This document shows, in pieces, positions 1,965-18,428 of a stretch of 64,000 bases of DNA. Within the stretch, counting starts at the first letter, position 1. The number at the start of each line of letters is the position of its first letter. The notes under the pieces are model-generated. The model was not told the origin of the DNA, did no database searches, and saw only the letters and a program-made list of their open reading frames with translations. The stretch is taken from positions 1,344,001 to 1,408,000 of the forward strand of contig OY759316.1 of the NCBI GenBank assembly GCA_963662275.1, given 5' to 3'. The stretch is from Candidatus Cloacimonadales bacterium (GTDB lineage Bacteria > Cloacimonadota > Cloacimonadia > Cloacimonadales > DAONDQ01). Position numbers and translations under genes: made by a program.

Positions 1965-2163
1965 GGAACGCCTGACCCCGTCAGGTGGCATAACGCACCC
2001 CGTGCGTTTCAATATTCCAACAGAAGCAGGATCGGCATCCTGCTCTACAACCGCGTGAATGCGGAGCTACGTAACAGCAGGATCGGCATCCTGCTCTACA
2101 AAGAAGGCAACCTGAAGGATGCCACTACCAAAGAAAGACAGTAAGAACGGCATCTTACTTTAC
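1965..2163 (-). repeat. REP/BIME-like cluster of short palindromes
   Basis: On the minus strand: GTAG-AGCAGGAT-GCCG-ATCCTGCT, GTAG-CT-CCGC-ATTCAC-GCGG and GTAG-T-GGCATCC-TTCA-GGTTGCC; on plus, a double hairpin CCTGAC-CCC-GTCAGG / AACGCAC-CCC-GTGCGTT. Confidence 0.85.
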
Positions 2164-3260
2164 TGAATAATCTCCATCGCCTTATCATACCATACTATCA
2201 CTTCGCAGATCTGAGCTAAAAGAGATTGCATTGTATAGATGCTTATGTTTGCAATATTAGCATTTGAAATATTTACGCCTTTACTGAGACTATGAACACC
2301 ACATTCACTTGTAATATCATATATTGAAGCAAGTGCATTGCGAATGATAGAATTATAACTGATATTCTTTTTTAGATTATAAGCAGGAAGTCCAGATCCT
2401 TCAACGACTTTACCTTGATAATATCTTCCATTGATAAATTGCATAATCTTCAGCAATTGTGTTTTCTCTGAATTCCAATAATCAGCATTATATTCCCCCA
2501 TTCCAAAAGCAAGGGAATGTAAAATGTTTTCACATAGATTACGCAATAGGAATAAAAATTCGCTTCTTTTATCAGATGAATGATATCTTATCATATCAAT
2601 GAATTTATCAACCATCTCTTCACCTAATTCAAATCTAAGTATTGAACATTGTAAAAGATATTGATTTTCTATATTCATTGATTCAGAATCATTAATAGCT
2701 TTTATGATTTTACCTTCAGCTTCTGAACCTTTTATAATTACCCGTTCTATGCTGAATTGCTTAGTATCTATAAAGTGATCCAGTTTATGAATTCCTTCCG
2801 GAATATATGGATGAGCTGTGAGAAAGAATATTTTACATAAATTATCATGGTTTTTAATAAATAATAAAAATGCAAGAATGTCACCTTCTCTTTCCATATG
2901 TCCATCGACTATACTCTGAGCATCTCCAATTCCACTTTCTTTGAGAATTTCTAGGATATTTGGAATTTCAGCATGATATTTCCTACTATAGAGATTTCGA
3001 TCAATAATGAAAAGCTCATATTTATGACTTTCGTTTGTGATTTTTTTTATTGCTTCAGGGAATGAATAGCAAATTTCTAACTTACTAATTTCCTTACAGG
3101 CATCTATTATGTTATCTGCATTATTAAGGGCATTATTTTCTTCGATTTCGGTTAAGCGCTTCAATACCTTTTCGTTGCCTTTCATTAGTGTTTTAAAAAA
3201 TGTCTTAATTGTTGCTATATTTTTCGTAATTTCATCTTCTATATAAAGAATTTTACTCAT
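2160..3260 (-). CDS. Response-regulator receiver protein with insertions and a C-terminal helical domain, possibly HEPN/Abi-like
   Basis: Likely start MSKILYIEDE at 3260 (GGAGG RBS), overlapping the upstream kinase stop; receiver motifs YIEDE, FIIDRNL (phospho-Asp), FLTAH, IIKG; C-terminal LRNLCENIL...ECGVHS...IVWY. Confidence 0.75.
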   Translation of the reverse strand: MSKILYIEDEITKNIATIKTFFKTLMKGNEKVLKRLTEIEENNALNNADNIIDACKEISKLEICYSFPEAIKKITNESHKYELFIIDRNLYSRKYHAEIPNILEILKESGIGDAQSIVDGHMEREGDILAFLLFIKNHDNLCKIFFLTAHPYIPEGIHKLDHFIDTKQFSIERVIIKGSEAEGKIIKAINDSESMNIENQYLLQCSILRFELGEEMVDKFIDMIRYHSSDKRSEFLFLLRNLCENILHSLAFGMGEYNADYWNSEKTQLLKIMQFINGRYYQGKVVEGSGLPAYNLKKNISYNSIIRNALASIYDITSECGVHSLSKGVNISNANIANISIYTMQSLLAQICEVIVWYDKAMEIIQ

Positions 3261-5844
3261 TTGACCTCCAATAATCTTGAAATGTAATCGTAAAAGAATA
3301 CAAATTATTATTTTCACTAATGATTGGTTTGCAGTCGAGAACCTTCGTAAAATTCTCAATGACGACTTGCCCAATTCCAGTAGTTTTTGCTTTAATTTCC
3401 GGATTGTAAGAATTTAGAATATTTAGAGTTAATAAACCATCATGTTCAATCAATTCAATATGCAGTTTTCTTTGTTTGAAAAGGACATATGAACAGTACT
3501 TAACAGCATTAAATATGATTTCTTGGAACAAGATTAACAATTTAATAGCAGAACTTTTTACATTCCCTATTTTGTAGCTATCAATTCCCACAAGTGTAAT
3601 TCGTAAATCAAAGAAAAATCGACGAATAAAAGTCGTTATTTTCTCTATATCATCTGTTTGCGACACAGCATGCCACTCATGAGCTATGCTTTGAGTTAGA
3701 TTTTCTTCTGGAAAATAATTCTCATTAAATTCTGAGAAGTACATTTTATCAAACATATTTCCAATCGAATAGATAAGACTATTGATAATCATGGATTTTA
3801 AGGATATAGCACTTTTCCCAGGATTATTAATGTCAAAGATCAAATCGTCAATTGCAATCGAAAAAGATGAATTAATTGAATTTACAATCTCATATATCAG
3901 ATTAGTTCCTCGCAAGGCATTTTCAATAATGTTAACCTTCCCAGGTACTTCTTCTTTCAAATTGCTCAAGGGACGGCTTACTGAGACTAATAAATTTTTA
4001 ATACTATGTGATAGATTTGACATAATACGGTTGCGTTCCTTTTCTTTAGCAGTGTGGATTTGCTGATTTAACTCATTAGTTAGTTGTTTTTGAATTTGAA
4101 ATACTAGCTTAAGAAAAAATACAAGCTCAACTTCAGATAATTTATGACTTAATCCAATACACCATTCCAACAATTCGCTTTTTATCGAGATTTCTTTATA
4201 GATCTTACCATATTCGGAGGTTTTCACGATCTTTGTTTTATCAGTATCCCATTTTTTCTGTATTTTTAAAAATTCCGGATAGATATTATCTTTGAAATTG
4301 TCATCACTAAGCAACTTTTGTGAATCGGTGGGTTGTTTAGTTTCGAAATCTGCATTGATAAAAAGCTTAGATAACAACATTATATATGGTTCTATCGTCA
4401 TTTTATCGTAAGGAATTTCGCACGAAAAAAAAGAATTTATGTCATACTTTCCCTCAGGAGGTAACGCACTTAAAATGTAGTCATCAAGAGTACGAATGTC
4501 AAGATGTGGTGATTTTTTGTTAGTTGATCTTTTTTTAAGAGAAAACATGACAGAATTGTACAACTTCTCAGACGAGAATGATTGTAAAATTCCTGTTGCT
4601 TCGGTCATTTTTCCTATATTAATACAAGCTCCCATATACAACCAATCGATATATGCGTTTGTAGTTTTGATGAACTCTTGGTAAAAGGAAATAATTGCTT
4701 CAAAGAATTTCTCACTATATAGTTCAATAAATAGTTGATCTATATCTTGATACTCTTCATCTATGATTTTTGTTAATTCTACCCTTGCTTGGGCAAAGTT
4801 TCCAGTTCTTAAAAAAAATAGCACTTTCTCCCAAACAGGTGTATGTCCATTTCGTTCATAAGATATATTCAAGGCTTCATAAGCTTCATCATTGCGTTTG
4901 AGCGACAAAAGAATATAATATTTATCTAAATAGACATCGCCGATATCTTCATATTCCTGGAATTTAGCAAGCAATGTATTCATTGCACTTAAAGCATCAT
5001 CAAATTCATTAAATCGTTCACATAATTTGTATTTATGCTCAAGCATTTTATAACTGTCAGGATTCAGCGATATTGCTATGTCACATGCATTGATGGCTTC
5101 TTGTATTCGATTCAAAACCTCCAGGATAGAGCTTTTTGTAAAATATAAGTCACCATTTTCCGATTGAATAGTGATGGCTTTTTCAATAGAAACCAAAGCA
5201 TTATCATATTTTCTGAGTCTTCGTAGGATTAGACACTGCTGTTTATATAATTCAATGTCGTTTGGGATTAAAGCAATCGCATCGTTGATAATATCAAGGG
5301 CTTCCTGCTCTTTATTTTCATATAAGAGGATATTAGAGTGTAAAATATAATAATTTGGTTTTGATTGATCTAATAAAATTGCCTGCTTAATTTCTGCTAA
5401 AGAATTTAGTAAGAATTGGTTTTTGTCGAGCATATAATCGGATTTTGTTTCACTTACCTGACCGGTCATTTCTTTAAAATCCAGTTCAAACTCGATTTTG
5501 CCGGAACTATCTTTTGCTAGTTCTAAACAAATCTCTGCTTTACAGGAGTGATAGATTGCAAGAGATTCGCAGTCCAATGCAATGTTGATATTTTCAAGAG
5601 CTTGATGCAGAAGATCATTCTTTGCCAATGATCTCATCTTCATTCCATACTTTTCATACTCTTTATAATTATGTTTGCCTAATAAAAACACAGCCTTGGC
5701 ATAATAACAACCAGATAGCGGGCAGAGTTTAATCGCTTCATCAATAGTATCCAAAGCTAAATCTATATCCCCTTTTCTATATATTTCAAAGGCTTTGAGA
5801 CTCAGATCAAAACTCTGTTTATGGGTATCTATTGTTTTTTTCAT
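3253..5844 (-). CDS. Cytoplasmic TPR-repeat histidine kinase-like protein
   Basis: Many TPR-like repeats in the N-terminal ~420 aa; H-box LSHSIKN, N-box QEIIFNAVKY, degenerate G1 (ILNSY), G2 TTGIG; no signal peptide or TM helix evident. Confidence 0.8.
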   Translation of the reverse strand: MKKTIDTHKQSFDLSLKAFEIYRKGDIDLALDTIDEAIKLCPLSGCYYAKAVFLLGKHNYKEYEKYGMKMRSLAKNDLLHQALENINIALDCESLAIYHSCKAEICLELAKDSSGKIEFELDFKEMTGQVSETKSDYMLDKNQFLLNSLAEIKQAILLDQSKPNYYILHSNILLYENKEQEALDIINDAIALIPNDIELYKQQCLILRRLRKYDNALVSIEKAITIQSENGDLYFTKSSILEVLNRIQEAINACDIAISLNPDSYKMLEHKYKLCERFNEFDDALSAMNTLLAKFQEYEDIGDVYLDKYYILLSLKRNDEAYEALNISYERNGHTPVWEKVLFFLRTGNFAQARVELTKIIDEEYQDIDQLFIELYSEKFFEAIISFYQEFIKTTNAYIDWLYMGACINIGKMTEATGILQSFSSEKLYNSVMFSLKKRSTNKKSPHLDIRTLDDYILSALPPEGKYDINSFFSCEIPYDKMTIEPYIMLLSKLFINADFETKQPTDSQKLLSDDNFKDNIYPEFLKIQKKWDTDKTKIVKTSEYGKIYKEISIKSELLEWCIGLSHKLSEVELVFFLKLVFQIQKQLTNELNQQIHTAKEKERNRIMSNLSHSIKNLLVSVSRPLSNLKEEVPGKVNIIENALRGTNLIYEIVNSINSSFSIAIDDLIFDINNPGKSAISLKSMIINSLIYSIGNMFDKMYFSEFNENYFPEENLTQSIAHEWHAVSQTDDIEKITTFIRRFFFDLRITLVGIDSYKIGNVKSSAIKLLILFQEIIFNAVKYCSYVLFKQRKLHIELIEHDGLLTLNILNSYNPEIKAKTTGIGQVVIENFTKVLDCKPIISENNNLYSFTITFQDYWRSNE

Positions 5845-6002
5845 AACAACCTCTTTATATTACTTTGTTAATTGCCATACAGACTGATAACAAGTAATTT
5901 ATGTTCCAGTGAAGTCATTAAAGCCTAAAACTTACATTATCAATGGAATAGCAAAGTAAACAGGTAATCCTAATTTATTATTACGTAAATATCTTTACCA
6001 TC

Positions 6003-7472
6003 CTACGTAACATCTTTTACTTTCTTCAGCCTTGCTCGGAATGTATGCGGTTCCAATCCAAGTAATTTGGCAGCTTGGGTGGCATTTCCATTAGCTTTCT
6101 TTAAGGCTGACTGGTAGATGGAGGGAAGTATGATATTTTCTAGGTCTATTCCTTCAATGGGTATTTCAATGTTGAATTTATCGGAATGAGTCTCTTGAAT
6201 CAGGATATCTTTCGCTTCGACGGTATCGTTCAGGCTGTTGATGTAGGAAAGACGCACAACGCTCTTCAATTCACGGATATTACCAGTCCAGCGGTGTTTG
6301 AGTATTTTCTTTTCAGCAGCGGAGGAGAAATGCTTCTGTTCATGATTCTGCTGGCTGTATTCGGAAAGGAAATGATTTGCCAGCAGGATGATATCAGTGG
6401 CTCTATCACGTAGCGGGGGAATATACAATTCAGCCTGCACAATACGGTAGTACAGATCTTCCCTGAATGTCTTTTCTTTTATCATTTCAGATAGATTCCT
6501 GTTGCTTGCTGAGATGAGACGCACATCGATCTTCTTCGATTTACCGCCGACAGGCTGGATGGTTTGCGTTTCCAGGACTCTCAGCAGTTTGGTCTGCATG
6601 GATAAAGGCAGATCACCAATTTCATCGAGGAAGAGTGTGCCTCCGTCTGCTACAGAGAAATGACCTTCATGATCTGCAATGGCACTGGTGAAAGAGCCTT
6701 TCTTATGTCCGAAGAATTCGCTTTCAAAGAGACTTTCACTGATTGATCCGCAGTTTACAGCCACAAACGGCTTTTCCTTGCGTGCTGAATTGTAATGCAG
6801 GCACCTGGCAGCAAGCTCTTTACCTGTTCCGCTTTCACCGCCAATGAAGACTGGAATATCATACCTGGCATAGCGTGATATCCTTTCCTTCAATTCAATG
6901 ATGGAAGGATGTTCGCCAATGATCTCGTCATATTCGAGAAGCAGTTTATTCTTGAGAATGACATTTTCACGAGATAGCCTGGTCATCTCAGTCTTGATAG
7001 ATTTATCGTCAGCTATTTTGGGGAAGTCATCCAAACTGAAGGCTATTTCCTTAATTCCGATCTCCCTGGAGCTTTGAATCAGCTTTGCCTTAATTACACC
7101 GCCCTGCACAATAAAAAGCCAACAGGCATGCATCGTTGGCGTTCCAGAGGTAACAGAAATCGTGTATTCGACTTCGTTCGTCCCTTCATTCTTCAATATG
7201 GATTTCACTGCCAGGACCATAGCCGGATAGACGGTATTATAATCTGTGGGATCGATGGAAAGAGCGGGTTCGTAATGTACTTTCAGAGCAGGATGGTTCT
7301 TTTTGCAGTACACCAGGATTTCGGAGGCATAAGGAAGGTATTTGTCGCTGTTATAGAGAATATACAGATCATCGTAAGACATACTCTCCAATATGCTGAG
7401 AATTGCGCCTTTCTTGTTATCGCTTAAGAAGCAGTCATTATTTCCGATGAAACTAAGGAGTATCTTTTTCAT
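6003..7472 (-). CDS. Sigma54-dependent enhancer-binding protein with N-terminal RtcR-type CARF domain and C-terminal Fis HTH
   Basis: N-term LSFIGNND...DPTDY...SVTSGTPTMH (CARF-like); Walker A GESGTGKE, ESEFFGHKKGSFTSA, Walker B FLDEIG, FREDLYYR, WTGNIREL; HTH GNATQAAKLLGL. Confidence 0.88.
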   Translation of the reverse strand: MKKILLSFIGNNDCFLSDNKKGAILSILESMSYDDLYILYNSDKYLPYASEILVYCKKNHPALKVHYEPALSIDPTDYNTVYPAMVLAVKSILKNEGTNEVEYTISVTSGTPTMHACWLFIVQGGVIKAKLIQSSREIGIKEIAFSLDDFPKIADDKSIKTEMTRLSRENVILKNKLLLEYDEIIGEHPSIIELKERISRYARYDIPVFIGGESGTGKELAARCLHYNSARKEKPFVAVNCGSISESLFESEFFGHKKGSFTSAIADHEGHFSVADGGTLFLDEIGDLPLSMQTKLLRVLETQTIQPVGGKSKKIDVRLISASNRNLSEMIKEKTFREDLYYRIVQAELYIPPLRDRATDIILLANHFLSEYSQQNHEQKHFSSAAEKKILKHRWTGNIRELKSVVRLSYINSLNDTVEAKDILIQETHSDKFNIEIPIEGIDLENIILPSIYQSALKKANGNATQAAKLLGLEPHTFRARLKKVKDVT

Positions 7473-7733
7473 TATCCTCCCAAAAACTAATTTCGAAGTG
7501 CGAAGTAAAAGAACAAACTCATCCGTCAGATGACCTCCCTACCCTCCTTCCCAAGGAGGGAAGTGCCACCACTTCGACTACGCTCATTGCAGCGCTTCCC
7601 TTTAACCAAAGGGAAGGACTAAATAGGTGTATGATGATAGCAGGGCGGGAAGGGCATTTGTTTGTCAAGAAGTTTGAGGAAGACACCAATACAACCCCCC
7701 TTTAATCCCCCCTCGGGGAGGGGGGTATTTAAC

Positions 7734-8175
7734 GGAACGCCTGACCCCGTCAGGTGGCAAAAAGCACCCCGTGCGTTTCTATCTCCAAGCTGAAGCAGGC
7801 TCAACAAAGAAGCAACCTGAAGGATGCCACTACCAAAGAAAGACAGTAGGATCGGCATCCTACTCAACAAAGAAGCAACCTGAAGGATGCCACTACCAAA
7901 GAAAGACAGTAGGATCGGCATCCTACTCAACAAAGAAGCAACCTGAAGGATGCCACTACCAAAGAAAGACAGTAGGATCGGCATCCTGCACACAACCGTC
8001 TAAAGGCGGAGCTACGAAGACCAACCGCGTGAATGCGGAGCTACGAATCAGCAAGAACGGCGTCTTGCTTTACAACCGCGTGAATGCGGAGCTACGAATC
8101 AGCAAGAACGGCGTCTTGCTTTACAACCGCGTGAATGCGGAGCTACTCTTCAGCAGGAACGGTGTCCTGCTCTAC
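7734..8175 (-). repeat. REP/BIME-like cluster with 3x63-bp and 3x51-bp tandem units
   Basis: 63-bp units at 7800, 7863, 7926; 51-bp units at 8022, 8073, 8124; built from the same hairpins as 1965-2163. Confidence 0.9.
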
Positions 8176-8206
8176 TCAAATTATCTCCAGAAGTAAGTGC
8201 TACAGA

Positions 8207-10067
8207 GAGACTGTTCAGGCAGTTATTCATAAGATACAACAATTTAGGAAGTATCAAGTTGAAAAAAGTGGTCGAAACGGTCATAATTTAACATACCTTC
8301 CAGAATTGACAGATAAGCTCTGCTAAGGACACCAAATCACAAGTTAAGCTTTTTGACTAAAAATATCAAACACGCGAGTATAAGTAATTTCTCGAAGTCG
8401 TTTCTGACTATAAGTGTATCTAAAATCATATAAAATAGTTCTTTACATGTTTATTGCTATAGCTTCAATGGCATTTGTTACCTGGTAACAAAAGGGAGGA
8501 TATTATGACAAAAAAACACTCCAATTCAAGAAGCTGTAAGTGTCAGTCATGAAAGTAACCAATACTATGTAAGTATTAACGTACCATGTTCATTTTGTTT
8601 GCCTGAAACGACATCCAACCACAAGTTCTTAATAGCGTTTCTACGCTTATTAGTAGGAATAGGCGGAGACAACCTCCTTACACTTCAGCAAATAGCTGAT
8701 CTGTTTAACTACGCAGACCGCAGGAATGTACATAATTTCTGGCAAGAGTTTGAGCAGCATGGTCATGATATCCTGGCATATTTAAGCCGGAAAGTTGACC
8801 TGCTGGAGTGTATTCCTCAGATCGAGAATTTTGTTATCAATAACCTGCTTTTACCTTTAAATGTCATGTATCAGGAGTTCATCAGCCATCATGATTTTAA
8901 AATGTCCTATACCACTTTCTGCAAATATGCTTCTCAGGTCAATTCTCTGTCTGTAGTTAAGCAAGCTCAGAAGCTTCTTCTGAAAAAGACAGTAGGCGGT
9001 GATGCTGTACATCTGCTGAAACTGCTTGCCGGTCAGCAGAATACACCTGTTATCTGTGACAGACTCCTGGAACAAATGAAGACTGCTAAAGGCAATACAT
9101 CCCATAGAACCGCCGATGCAAAGCCGTTCCATAGTCTGGAACGCAAGAACCTGTGTCTGCTGGTACATTACCTGGTTGGAAGCGGTATGAACTTCGAGAC
9201 GATAGCTTTGCTGCTCAACACCTGTAAAGCTACAGTCTCAAATCTCTGGCATGAAATCGCTGACCTGCAGAGCCTGATTCTGAACTCAATCGGTAAGTGG
9301 AGCGGAAAGATCAGCATTGATGAGAAATATGTGAAGATCAAAGGTATTCCGTACTATGTCATCAGTATTGTTGATTTTGTGACTCACATCCCTCTGTTTT
9401 GTGAGTTGTATCCTGACACAAAGAAAGAATCATTCGAAGCATGTTTCAGAACCTTCAGACAGCTCTACAGGAAAGATCCAACCCTGATTGTCAGTGATGG
9501 CAGTAAATCGTTAGCAGTTGCAAGAAAAACAGTGTTTCCAAAAGTCCATTACCAACTCTGTAAGTTCCATAAGATACGAAATCTCTTCAAAAGAATCAGT
9601 CAATGTCATCTCCCTGAAGACAGGGACAAGTTCTTTAAGAAGAGGATTATGAAAGCTTTCCGAAGAGAAACGGCGGGCGGAAGGAAAAAGGGTATCGCAA
9701 GCCTGACAGCTATTACTCCCCCAACCGCCGCCGAATACATCAAAAGCAATATCATTAGTGATTGGAGACACCTCAGCAAAGGTTTGACTTCCAATGTCTC
9801 TGAACGCTGGAACCGCAAAATCAAGAAGGTGACATCCGGTAGATTTGGACTAAAATCTGAAGAAACCACCCGCAACCTTGTGTTTTCGCTTTGGTTCAAA
9901 GAACTGGTCGATAAAGGTCAACCAATCATGCGTCAGGAATCACTTTTAGCCAGTTTAAATATCTCCCGCATATGTCAAGAAAATGTGGATTGGTCGCACT
10001 TAGACCACTTTTTCTCTGTCACTACCAATAAGGCTGCGTAAAATGGAGGTTAATTTTGAACAGTCTC
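8207..10067 (+). mobile_element. Insertion sequence of about 1.86 kb with a DDE transposase carrying a CxxH motif (IS256/Mutator-like or IS6-like; family uncertain)
   Basis: Perfect 11-bp TIR GAGACTGTTCA at 8207 and 10057-10067; 8-bp direct repeat GCTACAGA at 8199-8206 and 10068-10075. Confidence 0.93.
8505..10041 (+). CDS. DDE transposase with an apparent +1 frameshift in an A7 run just after the RBS-linked ATG (continuous ORF is 8599-10041)
   Basis: Motifs SIDEKYVK, IVSDG, CKFH, TSNVSERWN; GGGAGG-ATG at 8505 joins the long ORF if one A is removed. Confidence 0.85.
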
Positions 10068-10239
10068 GCTACAGATTAACAATTTGCCGGTCAAAAAAGT
10101 CATTGACAACTTCAATTCTCATTCTGATTTGTTACCCTTAAAATAATTATCTTGGAATGAGAAACATAAGTGTTTGGCTATAGTGCTTTTGTGAATGAGA
10201 ATTACTGACTCGACATAAATGAAAAGAAGGGAGTAATGT

Positions 10240-13074
10240 ATGAAGTGTAAAAGGAAGAGAAGCCTTTTCATTTTAGTGGCTTTGATCTCCTTACTGGGTT
10301 TTACCATCGCTGTCAAGGCAAGCAGCGATGATAGCAGTTACGTGGTAAAAAACTTTAAGGTAGTCGATGTTCCCTATGATGATGGCACGGGTCTCCAACT
10401 CAGTTGGAATCCATTACCAAAAGAGAAGCGAATCATTGAATACCGCGTTTATCGTGGTGTTACTCCAGACAGTCTTTTCTTGCTGGGTACAATACCAATT
10501 AATGTGAAAACAGGTGTTGCCGGTGATTCAGTATATTATACTGATAAAGATTTGAATGTCCTGGTGGATATCAGTGCTCCCGGAAGATTAAAGAAAGAGA
10601 AGCAGCAAGGAGCTAAAAGTCCTTTGTACGGAGATGTCCCACGTGATGTTAAAGTACTAAACTCTATCTTCTCTAAGTATAGCTTTTTAAGTATCATTCC
10701 CAAAAAAGACTTCTATTACCGTACGACAAAAACAAATGCACCTGATAAGGCAGATTCAACTACATACGCCGGTTTGAAGATGAGACAGGTAACTTTGCTT
10801 GCCAGTTTAAATCCAAATACGAAGTATTATTATACAGTTGTTGCTTTAGATGAACGACGTGCTTTTCATAAGCATGCCCCTGTTCAATCAGGTATCCCTG
10901 TAGAAAATGCACCGGAACCAGTTCCCAAATTTAGTTCAGTGTATGTGAAAGATACGAATAAGATGCAGTTTGAGTGGGAATTACCCTTGTTCAAGGGTGA
11001 TCTGGCACAATATCAGATTTATGCTGTTCCTGCTTCATCACAAGCAGCCTTCGATGATTTCCGCCTTCATCCCATTCCCCAAACTCAATCTCCAGGTTTG
11101 CCAATTGCTGCCGGACAGATCGACATTGCCAGTTCAGATTCCTATAATATGGCTATTGTTGATATGAATGGAAGATCCCTCAATCCAGATACAATAGATC
11201 AACTTCGATTTGCTATTGGAATCATGGATTATGCTGGGAATGAAGTATTATCTTCGCTGGTTGCCCCAAAAGTCATCCTTTCTTCCCAACTACCTCCCAG
11301 ACCAACTTTTCTAGTGAAAGATAAACCGAATGATAAAGGTGAAATTCTTACACTCACTTGGAATAAACCGGTTGTATATGTGAACCAGACAAATTTCATC
11401 AGTGCTGATCGCAAGAAACTGATGGTTAATTACATGGAAAATGTGAATTCTGAGTTTAAGATAAAAAAACTGGCTTTCGATTTCTATAAGATCAATGATA
11501 CGAAGCCATTTAAGACACATCACGAATATTACCAGGATAACAAGATCATTGTAACACTACCTAAAGATTATAATCCTGAACTCGGATTGAATGTCAGGAT
11601 TAGGATTACATCCGTGCCTGCAGTATCTGATAAGTATGTCTTCACACAAAATCTTGTTTTCAATAAACAGACAAAATCCATGATTCCAGATAAATTGATG
11701 TCGGACGGAAAAGACGTGAACGAATTTTCCTATGTGATTTATAAAAAATTACGCAATTCCCAATCCTACACTCTTTCTAAAAAGCTCAACGGTAATCAAA
11801 ACTCGTTTGATGATAATATCCGTTTTGAAAAGGATATTTACAAACCTGTGGCTTACATGGATAAGAAAACAAACCAGGTATTGGTGAATTCAGATATTGA
11901 CATCACTTATGATAAAAAGGCAAAAGCTGTTGTTCAAACCAGTATTTATGCAAATGAAGCAAAAAAGCTGATGGCTAAACAGAAGAAAAGCTTGGATGAT
12001 AAACTCATTCAATTACGTGCCCAGATTCCCCAGGTCAATGATCCACAGCAATTAGCACAACTACAGGACCAGATTAATAAAACAACCGCCAGGCTGGAAA
12101 TGTTTAATAATCCTATCCTGAAGCAATCACTTACATTTACAGGTGATAGAAGCCGTATGCATTTCGTTTCTGCTAACAGGGAAAGTAATAAGCGCCAGGC
12201 ATCTTATCGGATGATTGTCAGTAATGGTGAAGGCATTTTTACCGAGTCTGATATCACGAAGGACAAAGACGACGAGACAGTTTATTATACACCTGTCGGA
12301 AATTGGTTTGATAAATCGAAAATTCCGATGCTGATAGCTTCAATCGTGTTCGGTTTACTGGTTGCCTTCATGATTCGCAAGGCGAAATTGGGACACGATC
12401 TCTTCATTCGTCCTATTGCCGGTATCCAGGAAATTGATAATGCTATAGGTAGAGCCACGGAAATGGGTAAACCAATCCTGTATTGTCCAGGTCTCGGTGG
12501 TCTTTCTGATGTAGCTACCATAGCTTCATTAGGTATTCTGGGTCAGGTTGCGAAGAAGACTGCTGAATATGATACGAAATTGATCGTTCCATGTTATGAC
12601 TTTATCATGATGCCTGTTGCCCAGGAAATCGTGAGAGAAGCTCATTATGAAGCAGGTCGTCCTGATTCATATGATAAGAACAATGTGTTTTATCTAACGA
12701 ATGTGCAATTTGCGTATGTTGCAGGTGTAAATGGTATTATGATTCGTGAAAACTGTGCTACAAACTTCTATATGGGTATGTTCTATGCAGAGGCTTTGTT
12801 GATGACAGAAACTGGTAATACGATCGGTTCAATTCAAATTGCCGGAACAGATGCTGTTACCCAGATTCCTTTCTTCATAACAACATGCGATTATACACTT
12901 ATTGGAGAAGAATTATATGCTGCTTCAGCGTATTTAGTTAAAGAACCCATGATGTTGGGAACCCTGAAAGCTCAGGATTATTTTAAATTCCTGATTCTGT
13001 TCTTTGTGATTCTTGGAACAGTGCTGACAACTAGTCACATAACTTTTTTAATTAATGTATTTCCTGAGAAGTAG
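10240..13074 (+). CDS. Large membrane-anchored protein: signal peptide, FN3-like ectodomain, TM, conserved C-terminal DUF6754-like domain, TM
   Basis: Repeated DxPxDxG..LxLxW and YYYTVVA motifs; TM at ~aa 697-714; IRPIAG..IDNAIGRATEMG, QIPFFITTCDY..GEE.YAASAY; DUF name from recall. Confidence 0.75.
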   Translation: MKCKRKRSLFILVALISLLGFTIAVKASSDDSSYVVKNFKVVDVPYDDGTGLQLSWNPLPKEKRIIEYRVYRGVTPDSLFLLGTIPINVKTGVAGDSVYYTDKDLNVLVDISAPGRLKKEKQQGAKSPLYGDVPRDVKVLNSIFSKYSFLSIIPKKDFYYRTTKTNAPDKADSTTYAGLKMRQVTLLASLNPNTKYYYTVVALDERRAFHKHAPVQSGIPVENAPEPVPKFSSVYVKDTNKMQFEWELPLFKGDLAQYQIYAVPASSQAAFDDFRLHPIPQTQSPGLPIAAGQIDIASSDSYNMAIVDMNGRSLNPDTIDQLRFAIGIMDYAGNEVLSSLVAPKVILSSQLPPRPTFLVKDKPNDKGEILTLTWNKPVVYVNQTNFISADRKKLMVNYMENVNSEFKIKKLAFDFYKINDTKPFKTHHEYYQDNKIIVTLPKDYNPELGLNVRIRITSVPAVSDKYVFTQNLVFNKQTKSMIPDKLMSDGKDVNEFSYVIYKKLRNSQSYTLSKKLNGNQNSFDDNIRFEKDIYKPVAYMDKKTNQVLVNSDIDITYDKKAKAVVQTSIYANEAKKLMAKQKKSLDDKLIQLRAQIPQVNDPQQLAQLQDQINKTTARLEMFNNPILKQSLTFTGDRSRMHFVSANRESNKRQASYRMIVSNGEGIFTESDITKDKDDETVYYTPVGNWFDKSKIPMLIASIVFGLLVAFMIRKAKLGHDLFIRPIAGIQEIDNAIGRATEMGKPILYCPGLGGLSDVATIASLGILGQVAKKTAEYDTKLIVPCYDFIMMPVAQEIVREAHYEAGRPDSYDKNNVFYLTNVQFAYVAGVNGIMIRENCATNFYMGMFYAEALLMTETGNTIGSIQIAGTDAVTQIPFFITTCDYTLIGEELYAASAYLVKEPMMLGTLKAQDYFKFLILFFVILGTVLTTSHITFLINVFPEK

Positions 13075-15542: not shown

Positions 15543-18428
15543 ATGAAAATCTTAAGTTTTAAAATAATTACACTCCTCTTATTATGCCTCATTGTACTTA
15601 CTTTATCAGCACAACAAACCGGTAGTAGAATGGTCAAAAATCTGAGTGTTTATGATAATCCTAATGATGACGGTTCAGGACTGGTTATAAAATGGACTCC
15701 TTTACCCAACTCAAATCGTACTTTGGAGTATCGTGTATATCGTGGTATTTCACCAGATACTCTTTTCCTCTTGGGAAGCATACCTGTTGATCCCGTAGCC
15801 GGATTTGCAGGTAAAGAAATGTTCTTTTATGATAAAGATTATCATGATTTTGTATCAATTCTATCTCCGGCAAAACTGAAAAAAGAAGAACAGCAAACAT
15901 CGAAAAGCCCTTTATACAAAGCCATACCCAAAGATCCCAAAATCTACGGTCCTTTGATTAATCACTATTCACTACTATCGATCATCCCTAAAAAATCGAT
16001 TTATAATCATACAAAATTGATCAGGATTGAAGATGATAAGGCATTGGGTGGTTTGGAATTGAGACGTTTTGAATCCATCCTGGCAAATGTGATCCCTGGT
16101 AAGAAATACTATTACACAGTCGTTGCTGTTGATGAGAAGAGAGTACTATCATCCTATGCACCCATTGTATCTGCCATTCCCTATGATAATCCCCCTGAAA
16201 CTGCGATAACATTAACGCCAAGATTCTTCCAAGAAAAAAGACAACTTAATTTCGAATGGACGCTGCCATTAAACAAATCTGATGTAGCAGAATATCGAAT
16301 TTATGCTTTAGAAAAGGCAAGAATACCCCAATTTCAAACATATTTAGAGGAACAGAATCACATTAATTCAATCCTGGAACAACAACAGGTTTATCCTGAA
16401 CAATATAAGACAGTTCCAGACCCTAAATTCACAAATCCCGCTTTCTTGATTGCTAGTAGTCCAAATCCACTTAATCCTATGGCAAATCTGATCATACAAT
16501 TTGACCAGGATGGTAAAATCATTGATGCAGCAAATAAATCCAATGCCTCATTGGATATGAATCGGATGCAGGATTATGTATTTATTTTGAGCTTGCCTGA
16601 TTATTATGGGTTTGAATCCTTTTCTCCATTGTTTCCAGCAAAAATAGGCATTGTTTCAGACCTTCCAACGCTTCCCACTTTTTCTGTAAGAGATAAACCA
16701 AATGATAAGGGTGACATGAATGAATTATCATTTGGAAGACCTATAGCCCTTATTTCCCAGGCTTTTTACAATGCAAAAAAAACAAAAATGACTTTTAATT
16801 ATGATTTTGCTACAAATGCTAATTATAAAATTATCAATGTATTCTTCAAAATATACGACAAAAAAGGCAATTTCCTAGGTTCAGTGAAAGAGTATTATCC
16901 TGATAATATCTTCAAATTCACACTTCCTAAAGGATCACCGGTATCTGATGAATATTTTCTGAAGATCGGGTTCAAATTAAAGGGACCTGAATTGAAGGAG
17001 AATTTCTATATTACGCAGAAGATAATGCTCGATTCTGCCACGAAGAGATTTGCCAATCGTGGATTGTACTTTGATAGAGAAAACCTGAACAGGTTCAATT
17101 ACCTGATTCTTAACAAATCAAAATCTGATCCTGGTTTTCAGCAGGTCAAAAAGCTTTCTACCATCTCACGTGGTTTTGATGACAATATTCCATTCGAAAC
17201 AATCGTGTATAAAGGAATTAACCGTTACGATCCAAAATCGAATACTCTCCTCTTTGATCCTACTTTGGATATTGGATATGATGTGAAACGGGAAATGCCT
17301 GTTTCTGTAAATTTATTTGCTGCTGAGATGAAGAAGTCTCTTCAGAAATGGAATAAACAGGTTGATACTCTCAAAGTAAAATATGCTAAAGCCACAACTG
17401 CTGAAAAGGCTTCCATACAAGATGAGATGGATTATTATCAGAAAATGATTGATTTGGTCACGAATGATCCTGATATCAAGAAATTGAATGCTATCACCGA
17501 CCCAAAAGAAAGGATGAAACTCTTAGCAATTATTCGTGAAACAAATCTTCGTACGTTTTCTTATAGATTGATCAAATCTGATGGAGATGGGAATTTCCTG
17601 ATTTCTGACATCTACAAGAATTCTGCCAGCAATGATTTTTTCTTTCCTATAGCCAACTGGTTTGATAAGACAAAAATTCCTATGATCATAGCTTCCCTGT
17701 TATTTACACTGTTGGTTGTCATCATGGGAATTCGCACGAAGCAGGGAAAGGATCTCTTTATCAGACCTATTGCCGGAATTGATGAAATTGATAATGCCGT
17801 AGGCAGAGCAACTGAAATGGGACGCCCAATCCTTTATGTGCCTGGTCTAAATACGATTGGTGAAATTGCCACGATCGCTTCTATGATCATTCTTGGTCGT
17901 ATTGCCAAAAAAACAGCAGAATACGATACCAGACTATTGGTGCCCAATTGCGACTACTATGTTTTACCTTTAGCGCAGGAAATCGTGAAGGAAGGTCATT
18001 ACGAAGCAGGTCGTCCGGATAGTTATGATCAGAATAATATCTTCTTCATATCAACAGATCAATTTCCTTATGTTGCCGGTGTGAATGGAACTATGATTCG
18101 TGAAAAGACAGCTACCAATTTCTACATGGGTACTTTTTATGCGGAAGCGTTGCTGATGACAGAAACTGGTAATGCAACAGGCGCTATTCAAATCGCAGGT
18201 ACAGATGCTGTAACCCAGATTCCTTTCTTCATTACTACTTGTGATTATACTCTCATTGGTGAAGAATTCTATGCTGCATCTGCTTATTTATCTAAAGATC
18301 CTGAGATTTTAGGTACTTTAAAAGCTCAAGATTATTTCAAATTCGTTATTGTTTTCTTCATTATCCTGGGAACGATACTAACTTCATTACATCTGAATAG
18401 CTTAATCTATTCGTTCCCAACGGAATAA
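15543..18428 (+). CDS. Second paralog of the large FN3-like + DUF6754-like membrane protein
   Basis: Colinear with 10240-13074; C-terminal ~250 aa highly similar, ectodomain diverged. Confidence 0.8.
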   Translation: MKILSFKIITLLLLCLIVLTLSAQQTGSRMVKNLSVYDNPNDDGSGLVIKWTPLPNSNRTLEYRVYRGISPDTLFLLGSIPVDPVAGFAGKEMFFYDKDYHDFVSILSPAKLKKEEQQTSKSPLYKAIPKDPKIYGPLINHYSLLSIIPKKSIYNHTKLIRIEDDKALGGLELRRFESILANVIPGKKYYYTVVAVDEKRVLSSYAPIVSAIPYDNPPETAITLTPRFFQEKRQLNFEWTLPLNKSDVAEYRIYALEKARIPQFQTYLEEQNHINSILEQQQVYPEQYKTVPDPKFTNPAFLIASSPNPLNPMANLIIQFDQDGKIIDAANKSNASLDMNRMQDYVFILSLPDYYGFESFSPLFPAKIGIVSDLPTLPTFSVRDKPNDKGDMNELSFGRPIALISQAFYNAKKTKMTFNYDFATNANYKIINVFFKIYDKKGNFLGSVKEYYPDNIFKFTLPKGSPVSDEYFLKIGFKLKGPELKENFYITQKIMLDSATKRFANRGLYFDRENLNRFNYLILNKSKSDPGFQQVKKLSTISRGFDDNIPFETIVYKGINRYDPKSNTLLFDPTLDIGYDVKREMPVSVNLFAAEMKKSLQKWNKQVDTLKVKYAKATTAEKASIQDEMDYYQKMIDLVTNDPDIKKLNAITDPKERMKLLAIIRETNLRTFSYRLIKSDGDGNFLISDIYKNSASNDFFFPIANWFDKTKIPMIIASLLFTLLVVIMGIRTKQGKDLFIRPIAGIDEIDNAVGRATEMGRPILYVPGLNTIGEIATIASMIILGRIAKKTAEYDTRLLVPNCDYYVLPLAQEIVKEGHYEAGRPDSYDQNNIFFISTDQFPYVAGVNGTMIREKTATNFYMGTFYAEALLMTETGNATGAIQIAGTDAVTQIPFFITTCDYTLIGEEFYAASAYLSKDPEILGTLKAQDYFKFVIVFFIILGTILTSLHLNSLIYSFPTE

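Follow-up and report, generated by a model that had tools for sequence, protein, structure and literature searches.

What does a bacterium do with a CARF-domain transcriptional activator, a cytoplasmic histidine kinase and a receiver protein when the three are encoded side by side, and is such a cassette a means of defence? The question is raised by a locus in Candidatus Cloacimonadales bacterium (GTDB lineage Bacteria; Cloacimonadota; Cloacimonadia; Cloacimonadales; DAONDQ01), located in the 64,000 nucleotides that span positions 1,344,001 to 1,408,000 of the forward strand of contig OY759316.1 (assembly GCA_963662275.1). This whole stretch is called the window below, and coordinates given without a locus number refer to it. 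A first-pass annotation, made from the letters and a list of open reading frames (ORFs), proposed that the three genes form an inducible two-component immune switch, in which sensing by TPR repeats leads to phosphorylation of a receiver that controls a toxic effector. From the analysis presented here the architecture and the regulatory wiring of the cassette are well supported. That it is a self-contained, horizontally mobile, CARF-gated and Detocs-like conflict module of the abortive-infection type, with a new effector, is the reading we prefer, and we regard the case for it as evenly poised. The genes are:

6003-7472, minus strand: activator gene with CARF, AAA+ and helix-turn-helix (HTH) domains, 489 amino acids (aa)
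3253-5844, minus strand: TPR histidine kinase gene, 863 aa
2160-3260, minus strand: receiver and HEPN-like effector gene, 366 aa, start at the ATG at 3260
3253-3260, minus strand: overlap of kinase stop and receiver start, 8 bp, read as translational coupling

Gene order and linkage in other genomes

The co-orientation of the three genes and the 8-bp overlap had both been described in the first-pass annotation and were confirmed on the minus strand. Its remark that the kinase and receiver genes are AT-richer than their neighbours also held, with GC contents of 0.316 and 0.300, respectively; the activator gene has 0.434 and the 64-kb window 0.397. A longer, TTG-started alternative was listed for the receiver frame and is unnecessary. 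Within 2160-7472 the three genes have no additional ORF of 80 aa or more between or beside them, and the highest mean Kyte-Doolittle value over 19 residues was 1.35 across the three proteins, so that no transmembrane segment is predicted.

Co-location of homologues in other genomes was a point on which, as stated beforehand, the proposal could have failed. At least 16 loci, in Cloacimonadota, Desulfobacterota and Bacteroidota, contain the trio of genes. To describe the linkage, loci (numbered with an L) were collected from the receiver side and from the regulator side. The receiver-first set comprised eight loci from named genomes and seven from same-order relatives; L020 is the same as L007, and with the window added there are 15 unique loci. 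In 14 of these 15 the kinase core abuts the receiver gene with overlapping or touching frames, the exception being L004, and the adjacency of the two genes is therefore not a matter of chance. A CARF regulator is located upstream, on the same strand, in 10 of the 15. Three of the five loci without it end at contig ends, and L003 and L004 truly have no regulator within 10 kb. In two contig-cut cases (G006, G051) the regulator was found at the edge of another contig, pointing outward.

For the CARF-first set 20 of 37 matches were fetched, among them two that duplicate earlier loci and three of less than 2.1 kb. Downstream sequence of 4 kb or more was available for 17, and of these 17 loci 11 encode a protein with the HEPN-like domain and nine the kinase core. 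Other arrangements were also observed behind the regulator: a receiver-like protein with another C-terminus (L032), a divergent receiver-HEPN-like protein together with a TPR protein devoid of the kinase core (L031), a divergent receiver-HEPN-like protein behind a methyltransferase-like protein and without kinase (L034), a receiver protein directly behind the regulator, again without kinase (L037), and no such cargo at all (L033, L035 and L038). At a site next to uvrC (L029, L031, L034) the cargo behind the regulator varies among related genomes, and at a site next to an operon for resistance-nodulation-division (RND) efflux (L033, L037, L038) related genomes have different cargo or none; both sites look like cargo turnover at a hot spot.

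As a separate observation, L035 contains at 8080-11768 an ORF of at least 1229 aa that reaches the end of the fetched stretch and has TPR repeats and a sigma-54 AAA+ domain in addition to a protein-kinase-like N-terminus (PD-T4-6/mad6 models).

A divergent histidine kinase with a variable sensor region

4855-5397, minus strand: TPR part of the sensor region, residues ~150-330 (Pfam TPR_14, TPR_2, TPR_1, TPR_8 and TPR_19)
3253-4164, minus strand: dimerisation and histidine phosphotransfer (DHp) plus catalytic ATPase (CA) core, residues 561-863 (AlphaFold/Foldseek)
4006-4008, minus strand: codon of His613; the core also holds the N-box Asn779 and a G2 box from residue 822

The kinase was taken from the start to be cytoplasmic with a TPR array, and this description stands: TPR families alone pass the Pfam thresholds on the 863-aa protein, and TPR matches among the PDB sequences cover residues 150-297. 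The core was modelled with AlphaFold from an alignment of nine sequences (window and eight relatives; predicted local distance difference test score, pLDDT, 78). When this model was compared with known structures in Foldseek, the listed matches, 301 of them at E<=1e-3, were nearly all DHp+CA histidine kinases or kinase-derived modules, with ZraS as the best match (3.7e-8) and AgrC among the others. By its fold the 863-aa protein is thus a real, if divergent, histidine kinase.

Histidine kinases are commonly described by the N, G1 and G2 boxes of the ATP lid and their consensus motifs. His613 (LSHSIKN), the sequence E-x3-NAVKY that includes Asn779, and TG-x-G were invariant in all nine kinase sequences; a DxGxG G1 box was not evident in this alignment, where the N and G2 boxes are invariant. 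Weak Pfam matches were scattered among the nine kinases (HATPase_c_5 in seven, HisKA in five and HATPase_c in five), and phmmer and profile searches of the PDB sequences with the core returned TPR proteins or noise only.

Between loci, only the last ~270-300 residues of the kinases align by blastp and tblastn, and these cores are 36-80% identical. The same division was seen within a single operon of L001, where two kinase paralogues have cores that are 79.5% identical and sensor regions that cannot be aligned. These paralogues lie in L001:3115-10023 with a gene for a NERD-UvrD helicase between them (PADLOC C3a187, 1.7e-54). One metagenomic contig of 28.6 kb appears to carry three kinase clusters.

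The receiver protein and its output domain

2691-3260, minus strand: divergent REC domain with insertions, residues 1-190 (VIA-align, Foldseek)
3000-3002, minus strand: codon of Asp87; further pocket residues are E8-D9-E10, Thr148 and Lys177
2160-2672, minus strand: HEPN-like helical domain, residues 197-366, plus stop (VIA-align wide search)

The full-length 366-aa protein was modelled with AlphaFold from a 17-sequence alignment (pLDDT 85.1). Its N-terminal part matched receiver domains with Z up to 11.1 in VIA-align, where 319 chains reached Z>=8, and receiver domains were also its best Foldseek matches (probability 0.95-1.0). The motif IIDRN, with Asp87, was invariant in the relatives aligned, as was found for the kinase motif SHSIKN; both motifs had been singled out in the first-pass annotation. 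E8-D9-E10 and Thr148 of the 'LTA' motif are conserved, and among 115 representatives of the family Asp87 was present in 114 and Lys177 in 110.

This conservation bears on the suggestion that the receiver domain binds a nucleotide second messenger instead of being phosphorylated, the kinase-like core having some other role. Such a function has been proposed for the receiver of Cam2 (PMC11229360) and by Aravind's group (PMC8195603), and L037, L034 and L031 contain receiver proteins without a kinase core as partner. Against it, the acidic pocket with its Asp, Lys and Thr is kept, and at all receiver-first loci except L004 the receiver gene adjoins, in overlapping or touching frames, a kinase core whose His is invariant; we consider nucleotide binding in place of phosphorylation very improbable.

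The annotation had seen no recognisable DNA-binding output in the receiver protein, and according to the model the C-terminal domain is indeed something other than a DNA-binding domain. In the VIA-align wide search seven of the top 50 rows covered this domain (from residue 197, 206 or 209 to 366), and five of the seven were HEPN-domain structures: two of the Roquin HEPN region (4txa, Z 10.6; 4qik, Z 9.7), AF_0298 (2hsb, Z 10.3 over 119 of 126 residues with a root-mean-square deviation of 2.9), sacsin (3o10, Z 9.2) and TT1696 (1ufb, Z 8.8). The other two, 2jpu and 3mfn, are proteins of unstated function. As HEPN structures are the best matches other than receivers, the protein appears to end in a HEPN-like effector domain, an assignment that we hold to be rather probable on the basis of the model. 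R240 and W357 were found in all 115 representatives and H323 in 110, and E244, S318 and T343 are also conserved; the polar set R240, H323 and W357 suggests a functional site. The Arg of 'IIRN' is not conserved.

The protein family is a rare one: a word-indexed search through 5.8 billion proteins gave 17 clusters, and a profile search with the HEPN-like domain against 1.84 billion representatives gave 343 clusters at 50% identity. In one of the metagenomic representatives (P0193, 614 aa) TPR repeats are fused straight to the HEPN-like domain, with neither kinase nor receiver between.

The activator, its operator and the promoter ahead of the kinase

6978-7472, minus strand: CARF domain, residues 1-165 (Pfam RtcR at residues 30-137; PADLOC CARF models at residues 1-135)
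6204-6923, minus strand: sigma-54 interaction AAA+ domain and lid, residues 184-423 (PF00158 at 184-348; PF25601 at 355-423)
6021-6107, minus strand: Fis-type HTH, residues 456-484 (Pfam HTH_8, 8.1e-7)
6007-6020, minus strand: operator or upstream activating sequence, copy 1, GTAAAAGATGTTAC, in overlap with the final codons of the activator gene
5985-5998, minus strand: operator or upstream activating sequence, copy 2, GTAAAGATATTTAC, 22 bp from copy 1
5894-5908, minus strand: sigma-54-like promoter TGGAAC-N5-TTAC (GG-N10-AC), ~50 nt upstream of the kinase ATG

That the first gene codes for a CARF-sigma54 activator of RtcR type was supported by a full-length match (residues 2-485) to the PADLOC model RtcR_PspF2--CARF_AAA_HTH at 4.6e-131 and by the Pfam families Sigma54_activat (4.5e-65), AAA_lid_14, HTH_8 and RtcR (1.2e-5; 25.3 bits, cut-off 23.1). 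The protein is no RtcR equivalog, since with NCBIfam NF038308 it scored 288.3 bits, below the 650-bit cut-off. The genome has rpoN and 19 homologues of sigma-54 activators including this one; the 18 others align only from residue 158 on, and none of them therefore has the CARF part. Elsewhere in the phylum 34 of 231 genomes have homologues of the CARF domain, 46-65% identical.

The sequence GTAA-N6-TTAC occurs three times in the window, where 1.8 are expected, and two of the three span the stop codon of the activator gene, 22 bp apart. A tandem pair that differs by one mismatch at most and has the identical 22-bp spacing was found at the stop codon of the regulator gene in L001, L006, L008, L015 and L019. 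In the window the candidate promoter at 5894-5908 lies downstream of the pair. The exact sigma-54 consensus TGGCAC-N5-TTGC has no match within the window; at the equivalent position downstream of the regulator GG-N10-GC was present in L001, L002, L006, L015 and L019, and L002 has the perfect TGGCAC-N5-TTGC inside a 62-bp gap. In L006, L015 and L019 the first gene after the sigma-54 promoter, before the kinase, is a small one of 73-104 aa for an HNH_3 endonuclease, which the window cassette does not have:

L006:~7780-8000: HNH_3 gene
L015:4514-4735: HNH_3 gene
L019:11549-11863: HNH_3 gene

A shortened form of the regulator is informative in this respect. In L016:3066-3920, L017:3510-4247 and L018:5371-6105 the regulators have no AAA+ domain (244-284 aa), and the CARF part is joined almost directly to an HTH with which the HTH segment of the activator shares 56-67% identity. 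The same AAA+-less type was found in L040 and L041. In L016-L018 a single perfect palindrome GTAAC-N4-GTTAC is kept, and TGGACA-N16-TAnnnT stands in place of the sigma-54 promoter; by its sequence this promoter looks sigma-70-like. Regulator type and promoter type thus covary around a constant operator, and this is the best argument we have for control of the downstream operon by the CARF protein. Judged from these sequence patterns, the role of the activator is likely to be transcriptional gating of the kinase-receiver operon via the conserved operator and the sigma-54 promoter.

The annotation had also noted that no rtcA or rtcB is adjacent, and this can be extended to the whole genome: profile searches with PF01139 (rtcB) and PF01137 (rtcA) found neither gene in an assembly that is 99.97% complete. 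Type III CRISPR of the same genome was considered as a source of the CARF ligand and set aside. Cas10 gave only sub-threshold matches (27-36 bits, one 480-aa ORF), so that a resident type III system is not an evident source.

Signs of a conflict system, and what speaks against it

The module was found in seven of 60 same-order genomes and is absent from the same-genus genome. Compared with the regulator gene and with the average of the locus, the kinase and receiver genes have the lower GC content at 10 of 10 loci, the widest gap being that in L002 (regulator 0.533, the two others 0.347 and 0.335). Strong PADLOC matches lie beside or inside five of the 15 loci: an HmaA/DrmD-like SNF2 helicase (1.7e-68) and, inside the operon, the NERD-UvrD protein in L001, a type I restriction endonuclease (REase; 1e-95) in L002, PDC-M51A and a GajA/NsnB-like ATPase in L003, PD-Lambda-2_B and PDC-S11 in L006, and a DpdF-like helicase in L015. 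Genes for transposases, Tn7/Mu-like proteins or plasmid Rep lie beside the cassettes of the window, L001, L006 and L015; in the window it is a Mutator-type transposase gene at 8599-10041.

A further sign comes from the regulator side. In L039:301-9681, from a same-order genome, an activator 56% identical to that of the window immediately precedes the effector operon of a type III-D CRISPR-Cas system, recognised by Cas10 (1.2e-56), Cas5 and Cas7 of type III-D and a Csm3-like protein. This arrangement suggests that defence cargo can be put under this regulator subfamily as under a portable switch, and perhaps that cyclic oligoadenylate is what its CARF domain reads.

A number of results weigh against the Detocs-like conflict module as we describe it. 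On the side of the kinase, the window protein reached 14.9 bits with HATPase_c_5 (cut-off 22) and had no HisKA match, and hhalign of its core against one canonical kinase from L008 aligned 27 columns, the G2 box alone, with a probability of 1.7. On the side of the receiver protein, Pfam gave no match to the 366-aa window protein, Response_reg included, and no link of its C-terminal domain to HEPN was obtained at the sequence level in Pfam, the PDB sequences or the ESM Atlas. The structural Z values of 8.8-10.6 are under the ~13 advised for helical bundles, and such values can reflect a common arrangement. HEPN RNases reportedly share the catalytic motif Rx4-6H; it is not conserved in the receiver family, where the aligned position reads S318-x4-H323 and the invariant R240 is on another helix. 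On the side of regulation, the candidate promoter of the window deviates from the consensus at -13 (A for G), the promoter candidate in L008 is poor, and seven of the 17 CARF-first loci do not have the kinase-receiver pair in its usual form. As to context, PADLOC found no defence gene among the five window neighbours scanned and matched none of its models to the kinase and receiver proteins, the presence of Detocs models in the library being unconfirmed; L004 and L016-L019 are located among metabolic, envelope or biosynthetic genes; and none of 59 pattern matches in viral contigs was confirmed as a copy.

The ESM Atlas returned unnamed clusters below 0.9 only, the PDB sequences gave noise for both the protein and its C-terminal domain, Pfam yielded nothing consistent across 17 members of the family, and across 45 further representatives it gave two weak Response_reg matches and one TPR fusion and left the HEPN-like domain unassigned in all. 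We use the label 'HEPN-like' and nothing stronger because the Z values are below the advised level and no sequence method links the domain to HEPN.

Two other explanations were weighed. According to the first, the cassette serves in RNA stress or general stress without any killing or targeting of invaders: the activator would sense damaged RNA and the HEPN-like domain would bind or process specific RNAs, an adaptive response of housekeeping kind that could replace the missing RtcAB. The activator is nearest to regulators of RtcR type, RtcA and RtcB are missing from the genome, the canonical RNase motif is missing from the output domain, whose best structural matches are in part HEPN domains without catalysis (Roquin, sacsin), L004 and L016-L019 lie among metabolic or envelope genes, and the window neighbours, as said, are without PADLOC matches. 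However, the patchy spread, the AT-rich kinase and receiver genes and the sensor regions that are wholly different between loci, together with mobile and defence genes as neighbours, would be unusual for a housekeeping stress system, and the type III-D operon under the same regulator subfamily also argues against it. We find a stress cassette somewhat unlikely. Housekeeping contexts had been named in advance as a finding that would tell against the immune proposal; they do apply to L004 and L016-L019.

According to the second, the receiver protein is a non-enzymatic adaptor, and its phosphorylated HEPN-like domain binds a partner, which may be the CARF activator, sigma-54 polymerase or an HNH or NERD-helicase effector, as a feedback regulator or trigger. 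The lack of the canonical catalytic motif would fit, as would the extra in-operon genes (HNH_3 in L006, L015 and L019, NERD-UvrD in L001) and the report that the CARF domain of RtcR is controlled by products of its own operon (PMC9650030). But the window and most other loci are without an additional effector gene, so the pair of genes has to be enough there; the invariant R240, H323 and W357 with the conserved S318 and T343 resemble a catalytic or ligand site more than a protein interface; and the direct TPR fusion in P0193 fits an output domain. An adaptor is in our view improbable.

For the Detocs-like conflict module the balance is as follows. The proposal of a two-component immune switch is upheld by the Detocs-like logic, the patchy spread, the hypervariable sensors, the defence genes at five of 15 loci and L039, and it is weakened by the missing HEPN motif and the housekeeping loci. 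An anti-phage role is plausible, with about as much for it as against it.

Proposed mechanism

If the cassette is a Detocs-like conflict module, it would act in two layers. In the first, transcriptional layer the CARF-AAA+-HTH protein would bind both GTAA-N6-TTAC copies where its own gene ends and, once its CARF domain is occupied, fire the sigma-54 promoter ahead of the kinase-receiver operon. The ligand, we infer, could be a cyclic oligonucleotide or, as with RtcR, RNA that ends in a 2',3'-cyclic phosphate. In the second, post-translational layer the kinase would autophosphorylate at His613 of its conserved core on a cue received through the locus-specific sensor region, and the phosphate would pass to Asp87 of the translationally coupled receiver protein. 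Phosphorylation would then activate the C-terminal HEPN-like domain, probably through receiver-driven dimerisation. The most likely output would be cleavage or binding of RNA, leading to cell arrest; any RNase activity is putative.

A more elaborate version would make the cassette a three-tier, self-amplifying immune circuit. Here the CARF domain would sense RNA ends or a cyclic oligonucleotide, the hypervariable TPR kinase would sense the invader, and the receiver-HEPN-like protein would be an RNase with a rearranged active site, composed of R240 from one helix and S-x4-H, whose cleavage products feed back to CARF. The CARF-HTH unit would have been rewired between sigma-54 and sigma-70 promoters by loss of AAA+ and would serve as a portable, inducible switch for varied cargos, type III-D CRISPR-Cas included. 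Taken as a whole, this circuit seems unlikely to us.

Flanking sequences

1961-2161, no strand assigned: composite dispersed repeat, hairpin-rich, at the downstream edge of the cassette
7730-8177, no strand assigned: same dispersed repeat family, upstream of the activator gene

The two flanking repeats were considered as insertion boundaries and rejected: the family has 72 matches across the 4.38-Mb genome, and they are therefore no cassette-specific boundary. The repeat at 7800-8177 is a stack of three 63-nt and three 51-nt units, and the dispersed repeats generate spurious ORFs at 7619-7993 and 7771-8196.

Two further features lie outside the cassette. At 1266-1607 a 31-nt unit (CTTGGAACGCTGTTTTCAAACGGCTATGCTT-like) is repeated in tandem, with at least seven copies in register, and after it comes an 11-nt tandem repeat, TTCATACCTGT. 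The array falls within a 128-aa ORF without Pfam match, and each 31-nt unit holds TGGAAC-N5-TTTTC, similar to the -24 element of the cassette promoter. At 10240-13074 and 15543-18428 there are genes for paralogous proteins of ~950 aa, each with a C-terminal DUF6754 (1e-117), and between them three small genes without Pfam matches.

Comparison with known systems

Detocs is, to our knowledge, the only known defensive two-component system. It consists of the TPR sensor kinase DtcA, the buffer receiver DtcB and the receiver-effector DtcC, is validated against phage, and is reported to lose defence upon mutation of its His, its Asp or its effector (bioRxiv 10.1101/2023.01.24.525353). The same report gives PNP (80%), REase, TOPRIM or transmembrane domains as DtcC effectors and a detection rule that demands all three genes, DtcB included. 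The cassette studied here shares with Detocs, at the level of architecture, a cytoplasmic histidine kinase with an N-terminal TPR sensor and an adjoining response regulator whose DNA-binding domain has given way to an effector domain, here a putative one. Swappable effectors and the occurrence in diverse phyla are also alike, and in both the proposed logic is a His to Asp phosphotransfer that unleashes the effector. In contrast to Detocs, the cassette has no standalone buffer receiver, and in related loci the kinase gene directly abuts that of the receiver-effector; its effector is HEPN-like and thus none of the PNP, REase, TOPRIM or transmembrane types; and upstream it has, in addition, an RtcR-like CARF activator that comes with an operator and a sigma-54-like promoter of its own.

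RtcR controls the rtcBA RNA-repair regulon (PMC7790460, PMC9650030, PMC4012209), and the activator of the window has the same CARF-AAA+-HTH architecture, a predicted dependence on sigma-54 and a location directly upstream of its putative target operon. It differs in its cargo, a kinase and a receiver-effector instead of RtcB and RtcA, and in its placement in the separate PADLOC group 'RtcR_PspF2', in keeping with the missed equivalog cut-off. A 2014 paper noted CARF-NtrC-HTH proteins that have no link to rtc and are 'often associated with R-M systems', that is, restriction-modification (R-M) systems (PMC4012209), and RtcR homologues are described at the head of CoCoNuT type II/III-A defence superoperons, for which feedback of HEPN cleavage products to CARF has been proposed (PMC11090510). 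With these the cassette has in common a gene for a CARF bacterial enhancer-binding protein as the 5'-most member of a block of conflict genes that all run in one direction; it differs by its phosphorelay cargo, which the relevant passages of the two papers (PMC11090510, PMC4012209) do not mention. Both the operator motif and the regulator variant that has this operator but no AAA+ come from the comparison made here.

Csm6 and Csx1 are CARF-HEPN ancillary RNases that belong to type III CRISPR-Cas. Like these, the receiver protein has an alpha/beta sensor domain followed by a helical HEPN-type domain in one polypeptide, and activation through dimers of the sensor domain would be analogous; Foldseek aligned it full-length with Csm6 at low probability (0.25-0.28; ranks 14, 17 and 22). 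It differs in that its sensor is a phospho-accepting receiver and not CARF, that Rx4-6H is missing and that sequence similarity is absent. The resemblance may be taken as a lead, not as evidence of membership.

A full-text search of the literature returned neither a receiver-HEPN fusion nor a CARF-controlled two-component cassette, and the CARF census of 2020 may list the neighbourhood. The sections of the 2013 HEPN census that name receivers do so solely in another context. A figure legend on DefensePredictor gives TPR, HATPase and REC among predicted, unvalidated systems (PMC13092281), a set that may include the present module.

If the cassette is what we propose, it extends Detocs in two directions: by a class of receiver-fused HEPN-like effectors that has no Pfam model and spans the 343 clusters found, and by a transcriptional gate in the form of a CARF sigma-54 activator. 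The relatives whose regulators have lost AAA+ yet keep the operator would then amount to a natural experiment. With regulator, operator, promoter and cargo within ~5.3 kb, the locus is a compact system for finding out what CARF domains outside CRISPR and Rtc sense. Even if its role is non-immune, a phospho-controlled output of HEPN type would be a new kind of response-regulator output. We rate the family of the output domain as undescribed and place the module with the defensive two-component systems and the CARF-gated defence operons.

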